In this document: piece by piece, positions 55,518 to 63,666 of the stretch | Layout of the letters: each line of letters opens with the position of its first letter | How positions within the stretch are numbered: position 1 is the first letter of the stretch | DNA from: Myxococcota bacterium | Lineage (GTDB): Bacteria; Myxococcota_A; UBA9042; PHBI01; JAWLBL01 | NCBI GenBank assembly: GCA_041687695.1 | Contig: JAWLBL010000011.1 | Coordinates: 183,155 to 247,154, forward strand | Direction: 5' to 3' | Length of the DNA: 64,000 bases | The notes under the pieces: generated by a model | Told to the model about the DNA's origin: nothing | What the model saw: the letters and a program-made list of their open reading frames with translations, nothing else | Database searches by the model: none | Program-made: the position numbers and the translations under genes

Positions 55518-56435
55518 ATGCCCCCGACGCTCCCCCGCTCCCTCCGCCGCCTCACCGGCGCCCTGGGCGCCTCGCTCCTCGCCGCCTGCTCCGTCTCGAC
55601 CCAGAGCCTCCCGCTCGAAGATCCCGTCGCCATCACCGACGACGCCATCCTCCCGGCCGGCCTCTACTTCCGCCACGGCTACCTGGCCCCCCGCGCCGCC
55701 GGCGCCCCGCCCGCGCGCTTCGCGGTGCTGCACGGCGTCTTCGCCACCCCCGCCGCCGCCGAGCAGGCCGTCGCCGCCATCCCCGGCCTCGCCCCCGGCT
55801 ACCCCATGGTCGTCCACACCGACGAGCTCGGCCTGACGGACCCCTCGGTCCAGGGCGTCGCCGTCGTCGCCGGCCTGTACGCCGACCCCGCCGCCGCCGC
55901 GCAGGCCGCGACCGGGCCCGGCCTGTCCGTCGCCCCGCTGCTGGACGCCGACGCCGCCCACCGCCGCGCCATCGGCCTTGGCGACGCCGCCGACCCGACC
56001 GCCCCCCGCCTGCAGGCCGTCCGCCTGCGCCCCGGCGGCTCGCCCGCCTACGCCCGCGCCGCCATCGAGGCCGCCGAAGAGGCCCACTTCAACTACGCCG
56101 ACGTCCCCGGCCCCGACCCGCTCGCCTCACCGCCCGAGCCCCTGTGCCACCTGGACGGCGGCCGCGTCTTCCTGGCCACCGGCGCCGACCACGCGCTCGA
56201 CCCCTACCGCTGGGCGGCGGTCGACTGCGACGGCCAGCCCGCCTACGTCCCCCGCGAGCGCACGCTGCTGGGCACCCTCTTTCTGCCCCTGGCCACCGGC
56301 GACGCCCGCGTCGTCCAGGTCGCCCGCGTCGAGTGCGACACCGCCTCCTTCCGCCACTGGACCGAGCCCCCCCAAGCCCCCCCGACCCCGCCTCGCCTCG
56401 AGCTCGCCCGCTGCGGCGCCGCCGACGAGCACTGA
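55518..56435 (+). CDS. Hypothetical lipoprotein (SPOR-like segments possible)
   Basis: Lipobox LAAC. FAVLHGVFATPAAAEQA and VAVVAGLYADPAAA segments. Confidence 0.65.
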   Translation: MPPTLPRSLRRLTGALGASLLAACSVSTQSLPLEDPVAITDDAILPAGLYFRHGYLAPRAAGAPPARFAVLHGVFATPAAAEQAVAAIPGLAPGYPMVVHTDELGLTDPSVQGVAVVAGLYADPAAAAQAATGPGLSVAPLLDADAAHRRAIGLGDAADPTAPRLQAVRLRPGGSPAYARAAIEAAEEAHFNYADVPGPDPLASPPEPLCHLDGGRVFLATGADHALDPYRWAAVDCDGQPAYVPRERTLLGTLFLPLATGDARVVQVARVECDTASFRHWTEPPQAPPTPPRLELARCGAADEH

Positions 56436-56503
56436 CGGCAACGCGCCCTCGTCCCGCACCGCCGCAGCGCTGGGGTCAGGCCCTCGCGCTGCGGCGGTAC
56501 CGA

Positions 56504-57205
56504 TCACATGCCCGAGAGCTGGTAGAAGCCGACCGCCATCATCACGACGCCACCGCCGATGCGCGCCGCAGGCATCACCCGCGCCGCGGTGCGTCCCAGC
56601 CGGCCGAGGCCCATGCCGATGCCCACGAGCGCGGCAGCCAGCGGCAAGCTGTACCCGATGGCGAAGGCAGCCAGCATGGCCGCCCCCAGGAGCGTCGTCC
56701 CCTCGAAGACGGCCGCTCCCATGGCCATCGGGAGGAGCGGATTGCACCCGAACGCGCAAGCGGTGGTACCGCCGCCCAGAGCCAGGCCGTAGACGAGCGC
56801 TCCGACCACGCCTCGGCTGTTCGCTCGGCGTTCGAAGGCGAGGCCCGGAACCCGCAGCGACACGAGGCCCACGGCGATCAGCCCGACGACGACCATCATC
56901 AAGCCCGCCGCGACCCGCCAGTAGTTCCCCAGCGACATGCTGACGACCTGGCCCACGAAGCCCGCCACGGCGCCGAGGACGCTGAGGGACAAGATCGTCC
57001 CGAGCGCGAAGAACGCGCCGACGACGAGGAGCTCGCGCCGGGTGCGTCGCTCGCCCAGGCCACCTGCGTAGCCAGCCACGGCGCCCATCACGGGGAGGGT
57101 ACAGCACGAGCTCGCCGACGCGAGGATGCCGAACAAGAACGCCGCGGGCAGTACGGCGAGCCCGAGCTGGTCAACGGTCAGCGTGTTGCGAATCCACTCT
57201 TCCAT
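56504..57205 (-). CDS. CcdA/DsbD-like transmembrane thiol-reductant transporter
   Basis: About 6 TM helices, ASSCCTLP and CAFGCNP motifs, FAIGYSLPL. Confidence 0.8.
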   Translation of the reverse strand: MEEWIRNTLTVDQLGLAVLPAAFLFGILASASSCCTLPVMGAVAGYAGGLGERRTRRELLVVGAFFALGTILSLSVLGAVAGFVGQVVSMSLGNYWRVAAGLMMVVVGLIAVGLVSLRVPGLAFERRANSRGVVGALVYGLALGGGTTACAFGCNPLLPMAMGAAVFEGTTLLGAAMLAAFAIGYSLPLAAALVGIGMGLGRLGRTAARVMPAARIGGGVVMMAVGFYQLSGM

Positions 57206-57217
57206 CTTGCGCGCTCC

Positions 57218-57751
57218 TCAATGACCGCAGCAGCTCGAGCGGGCAGCGCCACAGCTCGGTTCGTCGTCTCGGGTGGGGGCCGGGGGGGGCACGGCGCCTC
57301 CACCACAACAGGTCGGCTGAGGCTGCGCCTCGACCTTTGCCGCACCGCCACAACAGGTCGGCTGAGGCTGCGCCTCGACCGTGGCCGCACCGCCACAACA
57401 GGTCGGCTGAGGCTGCGCCTCGACCGTGGCCGCACCGCCACAGCAGCTCGGGGCATCGGGAGCCGGCGAGTCCGGCGCCGCCGCATTCTCTGCGGACGAC
57501 GGCGTCGAGGCGCGGCCAGCCGCTGCCACCTCATCGCTCGCGCCGTGACTCCTGATGAGCGAACTCGCGCCGACGCCAACCGCAGCCGTCAGGACGATCG
57601 CGGTGATCACCCTTGCGGGCCATGACTTTCGAAGGGGCGGCGAGCAGCAGTCGACGGCCGCGCCCTCTGCTTCGCATCCACACGCCTGTCCCGCTGCGGT
57701 CGGGCCGCAGTCAGCGGGCGGGGCCGCTTCGACGTTCGTCTCTTCCATCAT
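57218..57751 (-). CDS. Single-TM Cys-Cys repeat protein (putative metalloid binder)
   Basis: N-terminal CGC and CC, one TM helix, then CCGG x4 and C-terminal CCGH. Purine-rich RBS before ATG. Confidence 0.7.
   Translation of the reverse strand: MMEETNVEAAPPADCGPTAAGQACGCEAEGAAVDCCSPPLRKSWPARVITAIVLTAAVGVGASSLIRSHGASDEVAAAGRASTPSSAENAAAPDSPAPDAPSCCGGAATVEAQPQPTCCGGAATVEAQPQPTCCGGAAKVEAQPQPTCCGGGAVPPPAPTRDDEPSCGAARSSCCGH
57303..57446 (-). repeat. 45-bp in-frame tandem repeat (CCGGAATVEAQPQPT) x3
   Basis: Units begin at 57303, 57348 and 57393 on the + strand. Confidence 0.9.
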
Positions 57752-57930
57752 CCCTTCCGTCCTCCTCGCTTCATCGGGCTCAGCCCGTGCCGCGCTGCGT
57801 CCCGTGGGGCCACGGGCGTCTACCCGCAGGAGCCTTGCCGCACGGCTCGCGCACCGCGATGCGGACATCGTCTTTCGTCTCTTTGGTTGATCTCCGTGCC
57901 TGCTGCTCATGAAGACGGAGACCCCATGAA

Positions 57931-57956
57931 GACGGAGCCCACGTGAAAAGGACGCA
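57931..57956 (-). promoter_or_regulatory. Candidate ECF promoter TGCGTC-N16-CGTC
   Basis: Minus strand reads TGCGTC cttttcacgtgggctc CGTC and matches the motif upstream of the divergent unit. Confidence 0.6.
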
Positions 57957-58247
57957 AGATGGGTCGCGGTGCACCTCGCAGCGAGCACGGGGAGGGCGAA
58001 CGGCGACCACCGCGCGTGGCCGCGCCCGAGTCGGGGAGCCTGTGGCCAAGGCGCTCGATGTCGTGCGCACGTACGACTCTGGCGAGATCACCGGCGCGCT
58101 GCCCGACCGCACGGGGGGCCAGATCCGCCGGGGCGCGAGCGACGCGGCGACCTACGTCGAACGAATGACCGAACGTGGTCAGGGTGTTCCAAACGGCCCC
58201 TCGCGACATGGCTCACACGTCGCGGCCGGCCGTCAAGGACGATTTGT

Positions 58248-58273
58248 CGCGTCCATTCGGGCGAGACGTCGTC
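58248..58273 (+). promoter_or_regulatory. Candidate ECF promoter CGCGTC-N16-CGTC
   Basis: CGCGTC cattcgggcgagacgt CGTC, 45 bp upstream of ATG 58319. Confidence 0.6.
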
Positions 58274-58318
58274 ATCCTTGGCACAGGGTCCAAGTGGGCC
58301 CCACAGAGGAGAAGTCCC

Positions 58319-58516
58319 ATGTCCACGAGCTCGTCCCCTTCCAACGATTCCCTGGAGCGCGAGGTGCAGAGCCTCGAGCCGGTCGACTCCGAGGCCGCCC
58401 CGGCGTGCTGCGATGCGTCCGAAGAGGCCACCTGCTGCGAGCCTTCGGCCGAGCCGGCCTGCTGCGGCTCGCCCGAGCCCTCTGCGGCGCCCACGTCCCG
58501 CCGCGGCTGCTGCTGA
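58319..58516 (+). CDS. Small acidic CC-rich metallothionein-like peptide (65 aa)
   Basis: GAGGAG RBS and four CC pairs ending in RRGCC*. Confidence 0.7.
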   Translation: MSTSSSPSNDSLEREVQSLEPVDSEAAPACCDASEEATCCEPSAEPACCGSPEPSAAPTSRRGCC

Positions 58517-58526
58517 GGTCATCGTC

Positions 58527-59126
58527 ATGAGCCACGTCGGATCGCGCACGTCGCCCCCGGATGTCACCGGGATCCTGCAGTCCTTCCAGACGCCGCTCCG
58601 GGCCTTCGTGGCGGCGCGCGTGCAGAGCCCGTTCGACGTGGATGACGTCCTCCAGGAGGTCTTCTTGCGGCTCGCGCAGAGCGGCGAGGCGCTGCACGAG
58701 GTCCAGCACCTGGCGGGCTGGCTCCACCGCGTCGCGCGGAACGCGATCGCCGATCACTACCGCGCGCGCGGGCGCCTGCCGCAGCTCGTCGAGGAGATCC
58801 CCGACACGGAGGACGCCCGCGCCGAGGAGCGCGGGAGCTCCGCGGACAACCGCCGCGAGCTCGCCGCGTGCCTCTGCCCCCTCATCGAGCGGCTCCCGGA
58901 GCCGTACCGCGAGGCCATCCGGCTCACCGAGATCGACGGCCTGACCCAGGCCGAGGCGGCCAGGCGCGCGGGCATCTCTCTGTCGGGGATGAAGTCTCGC
59001 GTGCAGCGCGGCCGAGAGCAGCTCCGGGCGATCGTGCTCGCGTGCTGCGAGGTCGACCTCGACGGACGGCGCGGCATCGCCCGGTTCGAGAGCAAGCCCG
59101 GCGGCTGTGACTGCAAGTCGACCTGA
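58527..59126 (+). CDS. sigZ: SigZ/CorE-type ECF sigma factor with Cys motifs
   Basis: DDVLQEVF, WLHRVARNAIADHYR and SGMKSRVQRGR. Linker CLC, C-terminal CC...CDC. Confidence 0.88.
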   Translation: MSHVGSRTSPPDVTGILQSFQTPLRAFVAARVQSPFDVDDVLQEVFLRLAQSGEALHEVQHLAGWLHRVARNAIADHYRARGRLPQLVEEIPDTEDARAEERGSSADNRRELAACLCPLIERLPEPYREAIRLTEIDGLTQAEAARRAGISLSGMKSRVQRGREQLRAIVLACCEVDLDGRRGIARFESKPGGCDCKST

Positions 59127-59206
59127 CCACGCCTGGCCCACGCGCGCTCCCATCGCGCGCCCGATCCCCCCCCCCGAACGTTCCCCCAGAACGAAGGCAC
59201 AGAACC

Positions 59207-60616
59207 ATGCAGATCCAGAGCAACGATCTCCCGGTCGTCGTCATCGGCGCCGGCCCCGTCGGTCTCGCCGCGGCCGCCCACCTCCTCGTGCGCAACCTCC
59301 GCCCCGTGGTGCTCGAAGCCGGAGCGGACATCGCCTCGAGCATCCGCTCGTGGAGCCACGTCCGGCTCTTCTCACCGTGGCGCTACGACGTGGACCGCGC
59401 GGCCGCGAGCCTCCTCGAGCCCCGCGGTTGGGTGGCGCCCGATCCCGAGGCGCTCCCCACCGGCGCCGACCTCCTCGAGCGCTACCTGCGTCCGCTCGCG
59501 CAGGTGCCCGCGATCGCCTCGGCGCTCCGCCTCGACGCGCGGGTGGTCGCCATCAGCCGGCTCGGCACCGACAAGGTGAAGACGGCGGCGCGAGGCGACG
59601 TTCCCTTCGTGGTGCGCACGCGCGGCAGCGATGGGGTCGAACGCGAGCTCCTGGCTCGCGCCGTCCTCGACGCCTCGGGCACCTGGGCCACGCCGAACCC
59701 GCTCGGCGCGTCGGGCCTCCCGGCGCTCGGCGAGGCCTCGCTCGCGGACCGGATCCACTACGGCATCCCCGACGTCCTCGGGCGCGACCGGCAGCGATAC
59801 GCCGGGCGGACGACCCTCGTCGTCGGCGCCGGTCACTCCGCGGCCAACACGATCCTCGCCCTCGTCGAGCTCGCCGAGGACGCGCCCGGCACGCGGGTCA
59901 TCTGGACGACCCGCGGCTCGAACCTCGCCCGGGTGTTCGGCGGCGGCGACGCCGACGGGCTCCCCGAGCGAGGCAAGCTCGGGGCACGGCTGCGCTCGCT
60001 GGTCTCGTCGGGTGACCTGAAGCTCGTCTCGGAGCTGCGGATCACGGAGGTCGCGGAGGATCGCGGGCGGCTCGCGGTGCGCGGGCACGGGCCGGGCGGC
60101 CCCCTCGCGCTGGACGGCATCGACCGCATCGTGGCGGCCACCGGGCAGCGCCCCGCGCTCGACATCGCGCGCGAGCTGCGCGTCGAGGTGGACCCGGCGC
60201 TCGAGTCCGTGCGCGCGCTCGCGCCGCTCATCGATCCGAACGAGCACAGCTGCGGGACGGTGCGCCCCCACGGGGAGGCCGAGCTGCGGCAGCCCGAGCC
60301 CGGCTTCTACGTCGTGGGGGGCAAGAGCTACGGCCGCGCGCCCACCTTCCTCCTCGCCACGGGCTACGAGCAGGTGCGATCGGTGGTCGCCTACCTCGCG
60401 GGAGACCACGCCGCGGCCGAGCGCGTCGAGCTCGATCTGCCCGAGACCGGCGTTTGCTCGACGAGCGCGTCGCCCGGCGCGAGCGGATGCTGCCCGCCCA
60501 CGGAGGCGGCCAAGGCGCCGACGCGGGCCGACGTCGCCGATGACGCGGGCAGCCCGTGCTGCGCGCCGCGCGCGGAGACCCCTCGCAGGGGCGCCGAAAA
60601 GGCCTCGTGCTGCTGA
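59207..60616 (+). CDS. Flavin-dependent oxidoreductase, ArsV/ArsO-like
   Basis: GAGPVG, DASGTW, GAGHSA, HSCGTV, KSYGRAPTFLLATGYEQ, PETGVC and CC-rich tail. Confidence 0.85.
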   Translation: MQIQSNDLPVVVIGAGPVGLAAAAHLLVRNLRPVVLEAGADIASSIRSWSHVRLFSPWRYDVDRAAASLLEPRGWVAPDPEALPTGADLLERYLRPLAQVPAIASALRLDARVVAISRLGTDKVKTAARGDVPFVVRTRGSDGVERELLARAVLDASGTWATPNPLGASGLPALGEASLADRIHYGIPDVLGRDRQRYAGRTTLVVGAGHSAANTILALVELAEDAPGTRVIWTTRGSNLARVFGGGDADGLPERGKLGARLRSLVSSGDLKLVSELRITEVAEDRGRLAVRGHGPGGPLALDGIDRIVAATGQRPALDIARELRVEVDPALESVRALAPLIDPNEHSCGTVRPHGEAELRQPEPGFYVVGGKSYGRAPTFLLATGYEQVRSVVAYLAGDHAAAERVELDLPETGVCSTSASPGASGCCPPTEAAKAPTRADVADDAGSPCCAPRAETPRRGAEKASCC

Positions 60617-61836
60617 CCGCGAGCCCGGGGCGAGGCGCGCGCAAGGCCCTCTCGGTCGGCGCGGCCGTGTGGATCCTCGCGGCCACCGAGACCGTCAGCT
60701 GGGGCCTCCTCTACTACACGTTCAGCGTGCTGCTTCGCCCGATGGCGGAGGCCGTGCGAGCGTCGGAGGTCGCCGTCTCGGGCGCGTTCTCGATCGCGCT
60801 CCTCGCCGCAGGCGCCGCGGCCCCGCTCGTCGGTCGCGCCGTCGATCGTCATGGCCCCGGGGCCGTGATGAGCGTGGGGAGCCTGGTCGGGGCGCTCGGG
60901 TTCCTCGCGCTCCCCGCGGCCACGTCGCTACCGCAGCTCGTGGCCGCGTGGGCGCTCCTCGGCGTCGCCCACGGCTGCACCTCGTACGAGCCCGCCTTCG
61001 CCGCCGTGACCTCCTGGATCGACGATCTGCGCGCGAGGCGACGCGCGCTCCTCGTGATCACGAGCTTCGGCGGGCTCGCGAGCACGCTCTTCGTCCCGCT
61101 GGCGACCGCCGCGATCGCGACGCTCGGCTTCGAACTCACCGCCGTGGCGTTCGCCGTGGTGCTGGCGCTCCTCGTGACGCCGCTCCATCTGGCCCTCACC
61201 ACGGTGCGTGCCCCCGCTCGGGAGGCGCCGAGCCCATCGGTGCAAGCGCCAGCCGCCCGCGCGGGGCTCTCCCTCCTCGCGGCGGTCCTCGCGACCCAAG
61301 CGCTCGCCTCGACGGCGGTGGCGACGTTCCTCTTCCCTACGTTGACCGATCGCGGCATCGCAGCGCCGCAAGCCGCAGCCCTCGTCGGCATCGTCGGCGC
61401 CGCGCAGGTCCCGGCACGCCTCTTCTACGGTGTCCTCTGCGCGCGCGTGCCGTCGAAGGCGCGCCTCGCGCTGCTGCTCGTCGTGCAGGGGCTGGCCGTC
61501 TCCGGGTTCGGAACGCTGAGCGGCGCGCCCCTCGCCGGAGTGCTCGTGCTCTTCGGTGCGGCCAACGGCCTGATGACCCTCGAGCGGGCCACGATCGTCG
61601 CCGAGTGGTTCGGGGTGCGAGGCTACGGCGCGAGGAGCGGCCTCCTCGCCGCGGGCAGCGCCGTCGCCCGCGCCTCGGCGCCCGTCGTGGTCGCCCTGAG
61701 CGCGGAGGTGACGTCGTACGCGCGCGCGTTCCTCCCCCTGGCCGTCGCCCTGGCAGCTGCGGCCGCGCTCCAGGCGGTCCTCGAGCTTTGGCGGGGAGTG
61801 GCCGCTCACGCCCGTCCTCCACGACCTCGGCGGTGA
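60607..61836 (+). CDS. MFS transporter, ArsK-like
   Basis: ETVSWGLLYYTF, YEPAFA, GGLASTLFVPL and QVPARL. Overlaps the oxidoreductase stop. Confidence 0.8.
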   Translation: MLLTASPGRGARKALSVGAAVWILAATETVSWGLLYYTFSVLLRPMAEAVRASEVAVSGAFSIALLAAGAAAPLVGRAVDRHGPGAVMSVGSLVGALGFLALPAATSLPQLVAAWALLGVAHGCTSYEPAFAAVTSWIDDLRARRRALLVITSFGGLASTLFVPLATAAIATLGFELTAVAFAVVLALLVTPLHLALTTVRAPAREAPSPSVQAPAARAGLSLLAAVLATQALASTAVATFLFPTLTDRGIAAPQAAALVGIVGAAQVPARLFYGVLCARVPSKARLALLLVVQGLAVSGFGTLSGAPLAGVLVLFGAANGLMTLERATIVAEWFGVRGYGARSGLLAAGSAVARASAPVVVALSAEVTSYARAFLPLAVALAAAAALQAVLELWRGVAAHARPPRPRR

Positions 61837-61847
61837 CACCGAGGAGG

Positions 61848-61925
61848 CGCCGCCGAGCAGGCCGTCGCCGCCACCCCGGCCTCGCGCCCGCTACTCGCTG
61901 GTCGTCCACACCGACGAGCTCGGCC
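61848..61925 (+). pseudogene. Frameshifted ~80-bp copy of an internal segment (55754-55833) of the upstream lipoprotein gene
   Basis: Near-identical alignment with two 1-bp deletions and a few substitutions. Confidence 0.8.
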
Positions 61926-62031
61926 ATCGCGTGAGATTGCAGGACTTCCGCCGTCTCGTACCGCCGGCCCGGTCGGTTGCACCGCAGCCCGGGCCGCGGC
62001 AGGGTACGGCCTCCCGCGGCCCGGAGCGCCC

Positions 62032-63666
62032 ATGCTCGCCTTCGCCCTCGCCCTCGCCTTGACCCTCGCCGCGCCCGCCCCGGAGGCCATCGGCGAAGGC
62101 CTGACCGCCCGCGAGGTCGCGCCCGGGACGTGGCTGACCACCCACGACCTCGGCTTCCCGTCGCACCAGCTCCTCCTCGCCATGCCCTCTGGCGAGACCC
62201 TGCTCGTGTCGACCCCCATGACGACGGACGCGACGCGCGCCCTGCTCGCCTTCGCCGAGCGCCGGCTCGGCGACCGCCCCCTGGTCGCCATCGTCCCGCA
62301 CTTCCACCTCGACGGCGCCGGCGGCGTCTCCGCCCTCCTCGAGGCCGGCGCCACCGTCCACGGCTCCGACCTCACCGTCCGCCTCCTCGCCGAGCGCGGC
62401 GACCGCCGCCGCGGCCTCACCGCCGCCTTCGTCAAAGACCCCGCCGCCCGCGCCGCCCTCCTCGCCACCCCGCTCACGCCGCCCTCCCACGTCTTCCCGC
62501 TCGCCCAGGGCCTCCGCCTCACCTTCGGCCCCGAGACCGTCGAGGTCATCCACCCCGGCCCGTCTCACGCCCCGGACTTCGTCGCCGTCTGGTTCCCGGC
62601 CCGCAAGATCCTCTTCGGCGGCTGCATGCTCATCGACGGCGAGCGCCCCGGAAACCTCTCCGACGCCGACGTCGTCGGCTGGCGCCGCGCCCTCGATCGC
62701 CTCGCCCCCCTCGCCGCCGACGCCCGCATCGTCGTCAGCGGCCACGGCCACCGCACAGACCCCGGCCTCGTCGACCAGACCCGCCGCGCCCTCGCCACCG
62801 TCGCCCTCGACCGCCGCGTCGCCGTCACCGTCGACGACCTCCCCTGGGTGGGCCCGCGCCCCCCTCCAGGCCGCACCGTCACCTCCGAGGTCGGCCGCCT
62901 CGTCGCCCACCTCACCACCCGCTCGGTCCCGGCCACCGGCTTCGCGGTCGGCCGCAGCGGCCTCACCGAGCCGCTCGCTCTCTGGCGCGACGCCGGCCTC
63001 CCCCTCGCCGACCACACCTTCACCCACCCGGCCTACTCCAAGACCTCCATCCCCGACTTCCTCGCCGACGTGTCGAAGAACCAGGCCTTCCTGAAGGACC
63101 GCCTCGGCGTCGACCTCACGGGCGGCTTCTTCCGCTTCCCCTACCTCGACCACGGCCACGCGGAAGACAAGGTCGCCGCCATCACCGCCTTCCTCGAGGC
63201 CCGCCGGATGCGCGTTGCCCCCGTCTCGCTCGACACCGTCGACTACGCCTTCGCCGCCGCCTACGGAGAGGCCCCCGCCCCCGCCCGCCCCCGCATCGGC
63301 GCCCTGTACATCGATCACGTCGACGAGGCCGCCGAGCACTTCGAGGCGCTCTCCCGCGAGCTCTACGGCCGCGAGATCCCCCTCGTCCTCCTCGTCCACG
63401 CCAACGGCCTCAACGCCGACCACCTCGGCGCCGCCCTCGACCGCCTCGCCCACCGCGGCTACCGCTTCGTCCCCCTCGCCGAGGCCCTCGCCGACCCCGC
63501 CTACACCGAGCACGGCAACCGCCCGCCGCACATCCCGCTCCAGGGCGACCGCAACTTCCTCAACCTCGTCGCCCTCTCCCGCGGCCTCCGCGCCGCCGAC
63601 CCGACCGGCGAAGCCCGCTTCCGCGACCACTGGCGCCCCCTCATCGAGGCCGCGACGCGCCCCTGA
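62032..63666 (+). CDS. Fusion of subclass B1-like metallo-beta-lactamase domain and CE4 polysaccharide deacetylase
   Basis: Signal peptide. HFHLD, GPSHAPD, LFGGC, GNL and SGHG, then TVDDLP, HTFTH, FRFPYL and LLVH. Confidence 0.85.
   Translation: MLAFALALALTLAAPAPEAIGEGLTAREVAPGTWLTTHDLGFPSHQLLLAMPSGETLLVSTPMTTDATRALLAFAERRLGDRPLVAIVPHFHLDGAGGVSALLEAGATVHGSDLTVRLLAERGDRRRGLTAAFVKDPAARAALLATPLTPPSHVFPLAQGLRLTFGPETVEVIHPGPSHAPDFVAVWFPARKILFGGCMLIDGERPGNLSDADVVGWRRALDRLAPLAADARIVVSGHGHRTDPGLVDQTRRALATVALDRRVAVTVDDLPWVGPRPPPGRTVTSEVGRLVAHLTTRSVPATGFAVGRSGLTEPLALWRDAGLPLADHTFTHPAYSKTSIPDFLADVSKNQAFLKDRLGVDLTGGFFRFPYLDHGHAEDKVAAITAFLEARRMRVAPVSLDTVDYAFAAAYGEAPAPARPRIGALYIDHVDEAAEHFEALSRELYGREIPLVLLVHANGLNADHLGAALDRLAHRGYRFVPLAEALADPAYTEHGNRPPHIPLQGDRNFLNLVALSRGLRAADPTGEARFRDHWRPLIEAATRP

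Follow-up and report, generated by a model that had tools for sequence, protein, structure and literature searches.

A SigZ-like sigma factor and divergent SigZ-type promoter motifs in a candidate arsenic and antimony detoxification island of a Myxococcota bacterium

Introduction

ArsV confers resistance to trivalent methylarsenical (MAs(III)) and to roxarsone, and its gene is repressed by MarR(ars), a regulator defined by the residues Cys36, Cys37 and Cys157; MarR(ars) and ArsR both bind As(III) as well as Sb(III) through cysteine triads (bioRxiv 10.1101/2021.08.12.456183). Among extracytoplasmic function (ECF) sigma factors, CorE responds to Cu and CorE2 to Cd/Zn, and CorE-like proteins are recognised by a CxC motif and a Cys-rich tail (PMC4937300, PMC8999054). 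Anti-sigma-less, Cys-tailed ECFs that are activated by metal are already known, with CorE and CorE2 as the examples. Here we analyse an island at positions 56504-61836 of a 64,000-nt window, the whole stretch of DNA under study, in which a sigma factor resembling SigZ lies among candidate arsenic detoxification genes. Contig C11 (JAWLBL010000011.1), of which the window forms the end, belongs to a Myxococcota genome of 7.97 Mb, with 73% GC and 99% completeness (GCA_041687695.1).

SigZ belongs to a group now called ECF238, defined by sigma2 and sigma4 domains with a short Cys-rich C-terminal extension (PMC7826278). The same reclassification calls the activation signal of SigZ a 'long-standing enigma', records that metal sensing has already been suggested for it, and names in its supplement a permease and a thioredoxin as the only conserved context of ECF238; in its main text, no word begins with 'arsen'. 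SigZ of Bacillus subtilis is described as having no determined function and as monocistronic and not autoregulated (PMC7826278 supplement, PMC4105308), and yrpG is one of its two suggested targets (PMC4105308). Literature searches at title and abstract level, with most subscription journals outside their coverage, returned no link between SigZ and arsenic, between an ECF and ars genes, or between arsM and a sigma factor.

Results

Matching promoter motifs face both units of the island

All six open reading frames (ORFs) of the island are present within 56504-61836, in two divergent units. Genes for a CC-repeat membrane protein and a CcdA-like protein read leftwards, and genes for a CC peptide, the sigma factor, a flavoprotein and a major facilitator superfamily (MFS) transporter read rightwards. 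The gap between the units carries GCGTCCWTT-N12-CGTC on both strands, at 57931-57955(-) before the left unit (-35 GCGTCC, -10 CGTC) and at 58249-58273(+), 45 nt upstream of the CC peptide start. A -35/-10 layout of this kind is typical of ECF promoters. The -10 block of the left promoter is duplicated just downstream, and a search for sigma-70 promoters found none across 56000-62300. Across all 7.97 Mb of the genome, the only two occurrences of the strict motif are those in this gap.

Because the motif was derived from the window, a shuffle statistic would be circular, and the motif was therefore tested on other genomes. A matrix was trained on 18 sites from loci L001-L022, which hold SigZ relatives from several phyla and include no site from this genome. 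The island sites are ranks 1 and 2 of the 14 genome matches scoring at least 16 bits, the left at 34.8 and the right at 19.6 bits; the next-best score elsewhere in the genome is 18.7 bits. For an independent test set, 401 genomes of the same phylum were searched with TIGR02959, 57 matched, and 58 loci other than the island's own were taken. The matrix matches 38 of these 58 SigZ loci, compared with none of 15 loci of other ECFs. Among the 41 sites in the test loci, 25 have arsM as the next gene, 22 of them at a distance of 45-84 nt. When equal flanks (±1.5 kb) were compared, matches were found at 21 of 29 SigZ loci and at one of 26 loci of weaker-scoring ECFs. The single matching control, L143, is itself SigZ-like and adjoins arsM; having been fetched as a control, it is counted within the 26-locus set and was dropped from the 25-locus control count given below. 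Related genomes are not independent samples, and locus counts are therefore descriptive throughout.

Judging from this distribution, the motif is very probably the SigZ promoter, so that the sigma would transcribe both divergent units. A first-pass annotation, made from the window sequence alone, had proposed that the island is run by its own sigma factor, and a cognate-type promoter in each direction makes this likely.

Two back-to-back promoter sites also occur in other SigZ loci (L001:5583-5640 and L110:4838-4922). Beside the Priestia plasmid sigZ, a 17.1-bit site lies upstream of an aldo/keto reductase gene; we take YrpG to be an aldo/keto reductase as well. A SigZ subclade comprising L107, L117, L118 and their kin has an ArsP_1 permease, a Thioredoxin_3 protein and a TGCATCC variant of the -35 element, and may correspond to the gene surroundings, a permease and a thioredoxin, that PMC7826278 lists for ECF238s2.

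SigZ loci are linked to arsenic genes

In a uniform tblastn tally, a core ars gene was found at 50 of the 58 test SigZ loci and at 14 of the 21 first loci, compared with none in either control set (15 and 25 loci). Counted by family, the 58 loci include ArsM at 33, ArsC at 15, ArsI/CadI at 11 and Acr3 at 10. When neighbours were clustered, one cluster, of ArsM, spanned 42 loci, and another, of Acr3/ArsC/ArsI, spanned 33. When 60 selected neighbours were checked against NCBIfam, ArsM, Acr3, ArsI/CadI, ArsA and ArsD proteins scored above their cut-offs and ArsC-like proteins below. The permease among the neighbours belongs to Pfam ArsP_1 and has a Thioredoxin_3 partner. Genes of ars type are also present at the SigZ loci of Rhodococcus and Hymenobacter. 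Within the fetched stretches, some of which stop at contig ends, 35 of the 50 ars-linked SigZ loci have no ArsR match.

The island had been described as ArsR-free. This is correct for the island, where none of the six products matches an ArsR family, and does not extend to the genome, which has nine HTH_5 matches, one of them heading an arsR-acr3-arsC operon on contig C5 (165300-167700), apart from the island. An operator, ATCG-N8-CGAT, lies upstream of the C5 arsR and of six homologous arsR genes. Control by an ArsR acting in trans, which the annotation had named as a refuting outcome, was checked against this operator type: the window contains no exact match, and the one match with a single mismatch falls within a coding region. 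With no arsR in the island and no such operator in the window, the island does not have the makings of an arsR-repressed ars operon. The arsC ORF on C5 carries an ArsI/CadI-like second domain.

The sigma factor is probably of SigZ type

The sigma gene (58527-59126, + strand) encodes 199 aa with cysteines at positions 115, 117, 173, 174, 194 and 196. Its hidden Markov model (HMM) scores fall just under both SigZ cut-offs, at 162.4 bits for TIGR02959 (cut-off 168.65) and 172.3 bits for NF007215 (cut-off 212). SigZ is the best family by far, the next scoring 79 bits, and the SigZ-like label given at first pass stands. Pfam detects sigma70 regions 2 and 4 only, followed by a Cys tail of about 30 residues (C173, C174, C194, C196), which agrees with the definition of ECF238. 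A scan of the six products and the flanks returned no anti-sigma family match, as expected of ECF238 and as the annotation had remarked; an anti-sigma role for the CC peptide is conceivable. From the best HMM family and these ECF238 traits we regard the protein as probably of the SigZ/ECF24 type (now ECF238).

In an 83-row alignment, from which L022, L075 and L077 were excluded for length, C174 is present in 83 rows, C173 in 71 and C115 in 43; C117 is not conserved, and cysteine is outside the five commonest residues at that position. The SigZ ORFs of L075 and L077, at 537 and 544 aa, have a long C-terminal extension or fusion. An AlphaFold model of the sigma (mean predicted local distance difference test score, pLDDT, 87.4; predicted template modelling score, pTM, 0.53) shows sigma2, sigma4 and a C-terminal beta-hairpin at 174-189. 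In the model, C173 and C174 sit where the final sigma4 helix gives way to the two-strand hairpin, and C115 lies in a long linker helix. The structures matched in a fold search with the sigma were generic ECF sigmas (20-28% identity), with no SigZ among them.

The annotation had also invoked the linker CxC of CorE, and this comparison failed. We used three CorE-like sigmas (L144, L152, L154), recognised by their CxC and Cys-rich tail motifs rather than by comparison with named CorE sequences. Relative to these, the window C-L-C is shifted by two residues: the second Cys of the CorE-like motif, 12 residues before a conserved Tyr, occupies the position of C115, and C117 is extra. In a quick tree the three form a clade (Shimodaira-Hasegawa-like approximate likelihood ratio test, SH-aLRT, 100) that excludes the window sigma, and the promoter matrix scores less than 10 bits at their loci. 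A CorE-type (ECF44) assignment was rejected on cysteine register, tail and this tree.

The flavoprotein belongs to a cassette with apparently exchangeable regulators

The flavoprotein gene (59207-60616, + strand) encodes 469 aa with a Cys-rich tail. The product matches Pfam Pyr_redox_3 and NAD_binding_8, and its GAGPVG and GAGHSA motifs are the FAD and NAD(P)H Rossmann motifs required of an ArsV. The family is very large. Among plasmid copies, that of Ensifer adhaerens M8 (54% identity) is flanked by arsR and an annotated arsK, those of Shinella (58%) and Bacillus cereus (51%) follow arsR, and that of Pseudomonas nitroreducens (52%) follows marR-arsN, where the MarR has Cys36, Cys37 and Cys157. 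Identity to ArsO-like proteins is 26-29%, and membership of ArsO was rejected (NF040505, 37.2 bits; cut-off 425). Of the earlier ArsV-type label, what holds is membership of a family of genes from arsR- or marR(ars)-led operons (51-58%); the label itself is indirect, given by operon context. The Cys-rich tail is present in all compared copies, including those run by ArsR or MarR; it is a family trait and so no evidence for this island in particular.

Close flavoprotein copies occur in six other genomes among the 401. A SigZ-type motif lies just upstream of four of them (18.0, 27.4, 28.7 and 30.2 bits); one of the remaining two has no site at 13 bits and the other is cut at its 5' end. Queries with ArsR and SigZ found no match in six wider stretches around these copies. 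SigZ is encoded elsewhere in four of the six genomes, and none was found in G390 and G198. A tight pattern, written after the sites were seen and of which only the rarity counts as evidence, occurs nine times in total in five flavoprotein genomes, four of these upstream of the flavoprotein. Three plasmid copies led by ArsR or MarR have no site of at least 10 bits. In locus L004 sigZ adjoins the flavoprotein and MFS genes, and in L002, L003 and L005 it lies near them, with ArsR genes also present. The simplest reading of these arrangements is that one cassette may be run by ArsR, MarR(ars) or SigZ in different lineages.

Two further arrangements were noted. L004:4514-9200 reads acr3-arsC-arsA, promoter-arsM-sigZ, and promoter-second sigZ fused to a CC peptide, followed by flavoprotein and MFS genes; by its gene order it appears to be an intact version of much of this island. 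In the single sequence P0081 (696 aa), SigZ and the flavoprotein are joined in one reading frame, a fusion that could stem from read-through or from a sequencing artefact.

The right unit begins with the CC peptide gene (58319-58516, + strand), which encodes 65 aa, acidic, with four Cys-Cys pairs. Its ORF has a third-position GC content (GC3) of 0.89, and GAGGAG stands ahead of its ATG. The peptide has no Pfam or NCBIfam match, and a homolog search returned only itself among three candidates; CC-rich peptides of 63-79 aa are found directly upstream of the flavoprotein in L175, L176 and L179. The MFS gene (60556-61836, + strand; Pfam PF07690) closes the unit; translation likely begins further into the ORF, at an in-frame GTG (60607).

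The left unit carries an apparent arsM relic

Right behind the left promoter, where other genomes have arsM, the window reads TKDDVRIAVREPCGK, which is close to ArsM N-termini such as TKDEARAAVREQYGN. This putative arsM 5' relic (57834-57891, - strand) spans about 20 codons and has no intact start. It scores 16.3 bits with an ungapped matrix from 34 ArsM starts, a score equalled or exceeded at 5 of 15,573,176 six-frame genome positions; true ArsMs score 32-57 bits on their own N-terminal matrix. A DNA alignment with eight promoter-arsM junctions from eight other genomes spans the promoter, the leader and the first 20 codons. The relic is not in the top 12 genome matches of an ArsM N-terminal HMM, and blastx of the intergenic region returned nothing significant. 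The relic call thus rests on position and moderate similarity. The HMM and matrix searches found no intact arsM in the genome, and because the relic aligns at this place and no intact arsM was found, the left unit is likely a former promoter-arsM operon.

The CC-repeat membrane protein gene (57218-57751, - strand) encodes 177 aa that comprise a single hydrophobic segment and a tail of Cys-Cys repeats, the latter written by three copies of a 45-nt tandem repeat (57293-57451). Its start was placed at the ATG at 57751; the counterpart in L172 begins with a comparable MEE. Searches returned no Pfam or NCBIfam match and no usable Atlas match; a sub-threshold match to Galaxin repeats was taken as compositional and rejected. 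The neighbouring ccdA/DsbD-TM-like gene (56504-57205, - strand) encodes 233 aa with SSCC and CAFGC motifs (Pfam PF02683, E 5.7e-11). Membership of ArsG was rejected (NF040495, 38.3 bits; cut-off 200). The pair recurs in L169, L171, L172 and L173, among six loci returned, and the CcdA-like homologs of L169-L172 are 62-73% identical; related ccdA genes are found in the SigZ-ars loci L089, L092 and L117. Behind the pair in L172 come an ArsR/SmtB gene and a truncated ORF; by eye, this ORF looks like the start of an ArsM, but it has no family match. In L171 the pair is followed by hgcA (L171:991-1395), encoding the corrinoid protein of mercury methylation and cut by the contig end.

Gene inventory and surroundings

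Five of the six products contain CC or CxC, as first noted, and the MFS transporter is the sole product with neither. Among 34 other ORFs of the window, called by a crude ORF caller that left part of the genes uncalled, four have such a motif. All six island ORFs are open and full length compared with homologs, and five have a GC3 of 0.89-0.95.

An 80-nt repeat flanks the island. Its source, 55754-55833, lies inside an unknown gene to the left, and a degenerate copy follows directly after the MFS gene at 61848-61925 (+); the two are 92.5% identical with indels (E 6e-25). This duplication is possibly a scar of island insertion. Further right, 62032-63666 (+) encodes a metallo-beta-lactamase-like domain fused to a polysaccharide deacetylase domain, the former scoring 131.5 bits with the subclass B1 HMM (cut-off 200). 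A short ORF at the contig end (63737-63910, +) stops early and has no Pfam match; its start presumably resembles transposases of the repetitive extragenic palindrome (REP)-associated tyrosine type.

Discussion

We consider it reasonably probable that an autoregulated SigZ activator runs an arsenic and antimony detoxification unit and is switched on by trivalent metalloid. The arsenic context proposed at first pass finds backing in the arsM relic, the ArsV-like flavoprotein and the linkage of SigZ to ars genes at 50 of 58 same-phylum loci. In the mechanism we envisage, sigma present at a basal level would be activated by trivalent As or Sb and would start transcription in both directions. Rightwards it would transcribe the peptide-sigZ-flavoprotein-MFS unit, with positive feedback on sigZ, and leftwards the CC-repeat protein and ccdA-like genes, a unit that would once have begun with arsM. 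The probable task of the flavoprotein is that of ArsV, the oxidation of trivalent organoarsenicals or Sb(III), with the MFS protein exporting substrate or product. The CC peptide and CC-repeat protein are putative metalloid buffers or carriers, and the CcdA-like protein would keep thiols on the outer side reduced.

For the sensing step our preference is slight. As(III), MAs(III) or Sb(III) may bind C173/C174 together with a third cysteine (C115 or C194/C196) and lock the sigma in its active state, a step modelled on the action of Cu or Cd on CorE and CorE2. A CC pair plus one more cysteine is a plausible site because ArsR and MarR(ars) bind metalloid through cysteine triads. To a broader proposition we give an even chance: SigZ/ECF24 sigmas would be one-component sensors of As(III) and Sb(III), activators that read TGCGTCYWTT-N12-CGTCT and are interchangeable with ArsR or MarR(ars) repressors before the same oxidase-pump cassette. 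The island would then be a two-promoter, autoregulated case in which arsenic methylation, with arsM lost, was traded for oxidation and efflux, and in which two undescribed Cys-Cys proteins serve as metalloid carriers.

Several observations weigh against this picture. The right promoter is the weaker one, its 19.6 bits being near the background of 18.7, and 20 of the 58 test SigZ loci have no site at 16 bits. The PMC7826278 supplement (Casas-Pastor) describes ECF238 as a group without conserved promoters and without autoregulation; our promoter counts disagree with that supplement for the SigZ-like part of ECF238. At six of the 58 test loci, ars genes, the ArsP-type permease and the partner thioredoxin are all absent, and plasmid-borne SigZ of Priestia, Vibrio and Microbulbifer adjoins an aldo/keto reductase or glutathione S-transferase (GST) gene rather than ars genes. 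These three keep the CC, so that CC alone is no mark of arsenic sensing, and just 43 of the 83 sigma rows have the linker Cys115. A peptide-flavoprotein-MFS unit in L176 has no site at 13 bits. G390, which is 92% complete, has the motif before the flavoprotein and no SigZ that we could find, and its second site precedes an unrelated gene. The MFS transporter, finally, does not bear out the ArsK-type label of the annotation: it scores 143.7 bits with NF033733 (cut-off 400) and is 31% identical to the annotated ArsK, which scores 515.3 bits; other flavoprotein-linked MFS proteins score 160-204.

An unlikely alternative keeps the sigma in charge of both units and changes the signal, to thiol stress in general or a different soft metal (Hg, Cd, Cu); ars genes would gather in such a regulon as As(III) is one common thiol poison. 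The responses of CorE and CorE2 to Cu and Cd/Zn (PMC4937300, PMC8999054), the GST and aldo/keto reductase genes that replace ars genes at some SigZ loci, and the hgcA that follows the CC-repeat/ccdA pair in L171 fit that view. The SigZ neighbours, however, are arsenic-specific families (ArsM, ArsC, ArsI/CadI, Acr3), no merA, copA or czc cluster is among the recurrent neighbour clusters listed, and the same flavoprotein stands elsewhere behind ArsR or MarR(ars). Very improbable, in our estimate, is that the island was acquired horizontally and is now a remnant in decay, its regulation or expression lost. The arsM stub, the duplicated left -10 block, the off-consensus right promoter and the degenerate 80-nt duplication at the island edge could all be signs of decay, and 40 relatives hold no close flavoprotein homolog (best identity 35-38%); yet the six ORFs are open and full length, five retain their high GC3 (0.89-0.95), and both promoter motifs are kept.

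A distinctly unlikely arrangement, less so than that of a remnant, would make the sigma an amplifier rather than the sensor, its activity being set by an ArsR upstream or in trans, by proteolysis, or by the CC peptide as a small soluble anti-sigma released on metalloid binding. An ArsR/SmtB match does lie within about 5 kb at 15 of the 58 SigZ loci, in L085 arsR-arsD is directly upstream of promoter-arsM-sigZ, and this genome encodes an ArsR on C5. Against an ArsR layer stand the 35 of 50 ars-linked loci without an ArsR match and the C5-type operator, for which the window offers only the single-mismatch match in a coding region. The peptide version draws on the position of the CC peptide gene as the first of the sigma's unit and on the fusion of a related peptide to SigZ in L004, but, judged by position, CC peptides also go with flavoprotein genes that have no detected sigZ close by, and ECF238 is described as being without anti-sigmas (PMC7826278).

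What is new here is the pair of divergent SigZ-type promoter sites, the predicted oxidase-pump target and the apparent regulator swap. For the SigZ family, still poorly understood, the analysis points to a possible function, and within 5.3 kb the locus offers a sigma with six cysteines, two candidate promoters and targets whose predicted activity can be assayed. If the reading is right, sigma activation, and not repressor release, would govern arsenic defence in many soil and sediment bacteria, and the motif would predict ars regulons, including arsM, where no arsR is nearby, which is relevant to arsenic methylation in soil. A sigma activator of this kind could also serve as a part for arsenic biosensors.

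Set beside known systems, the island shares with B. subtilis SigZ (TIGR02959) the best HMM family, the C-terminal Cys-Cys and the lack of an anti-sigma, and differs in that its sigZ lies inside a motif-headed unit, beside arsenic genes. Like CorE and CorE2 of Myxococcus xanthus, its sigma is an ECF with linker and C-terminal cysteines and no anti-sigma, but its tail has the form CC-hairpin-CxC and is not a CorE-like Cys-rich domain. The CcdA-like protein resembles ArsG/CcdA-type proteins of ars clusters in its DsbD-TM fold family, membrane cysteines and weak ArsG HMM match; unlike those clusters, the island has no ArsE or ArsF partners and pairs its ccdA with a CC-repeat protein of no known family. 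With the arsR-arsV-arsK and marR(ars)-arsV operons it has in common the flavoprotein family (52-58% identity), the MFS gene that comes next and the Cys-rich tail. It departs from them in its MFS protein, only 31% identical to ArsK and under the HMM cut-off, and in the head of the unit, where a SigZ-type promoter and a CC peptide gene stand in place of a repressor gene.

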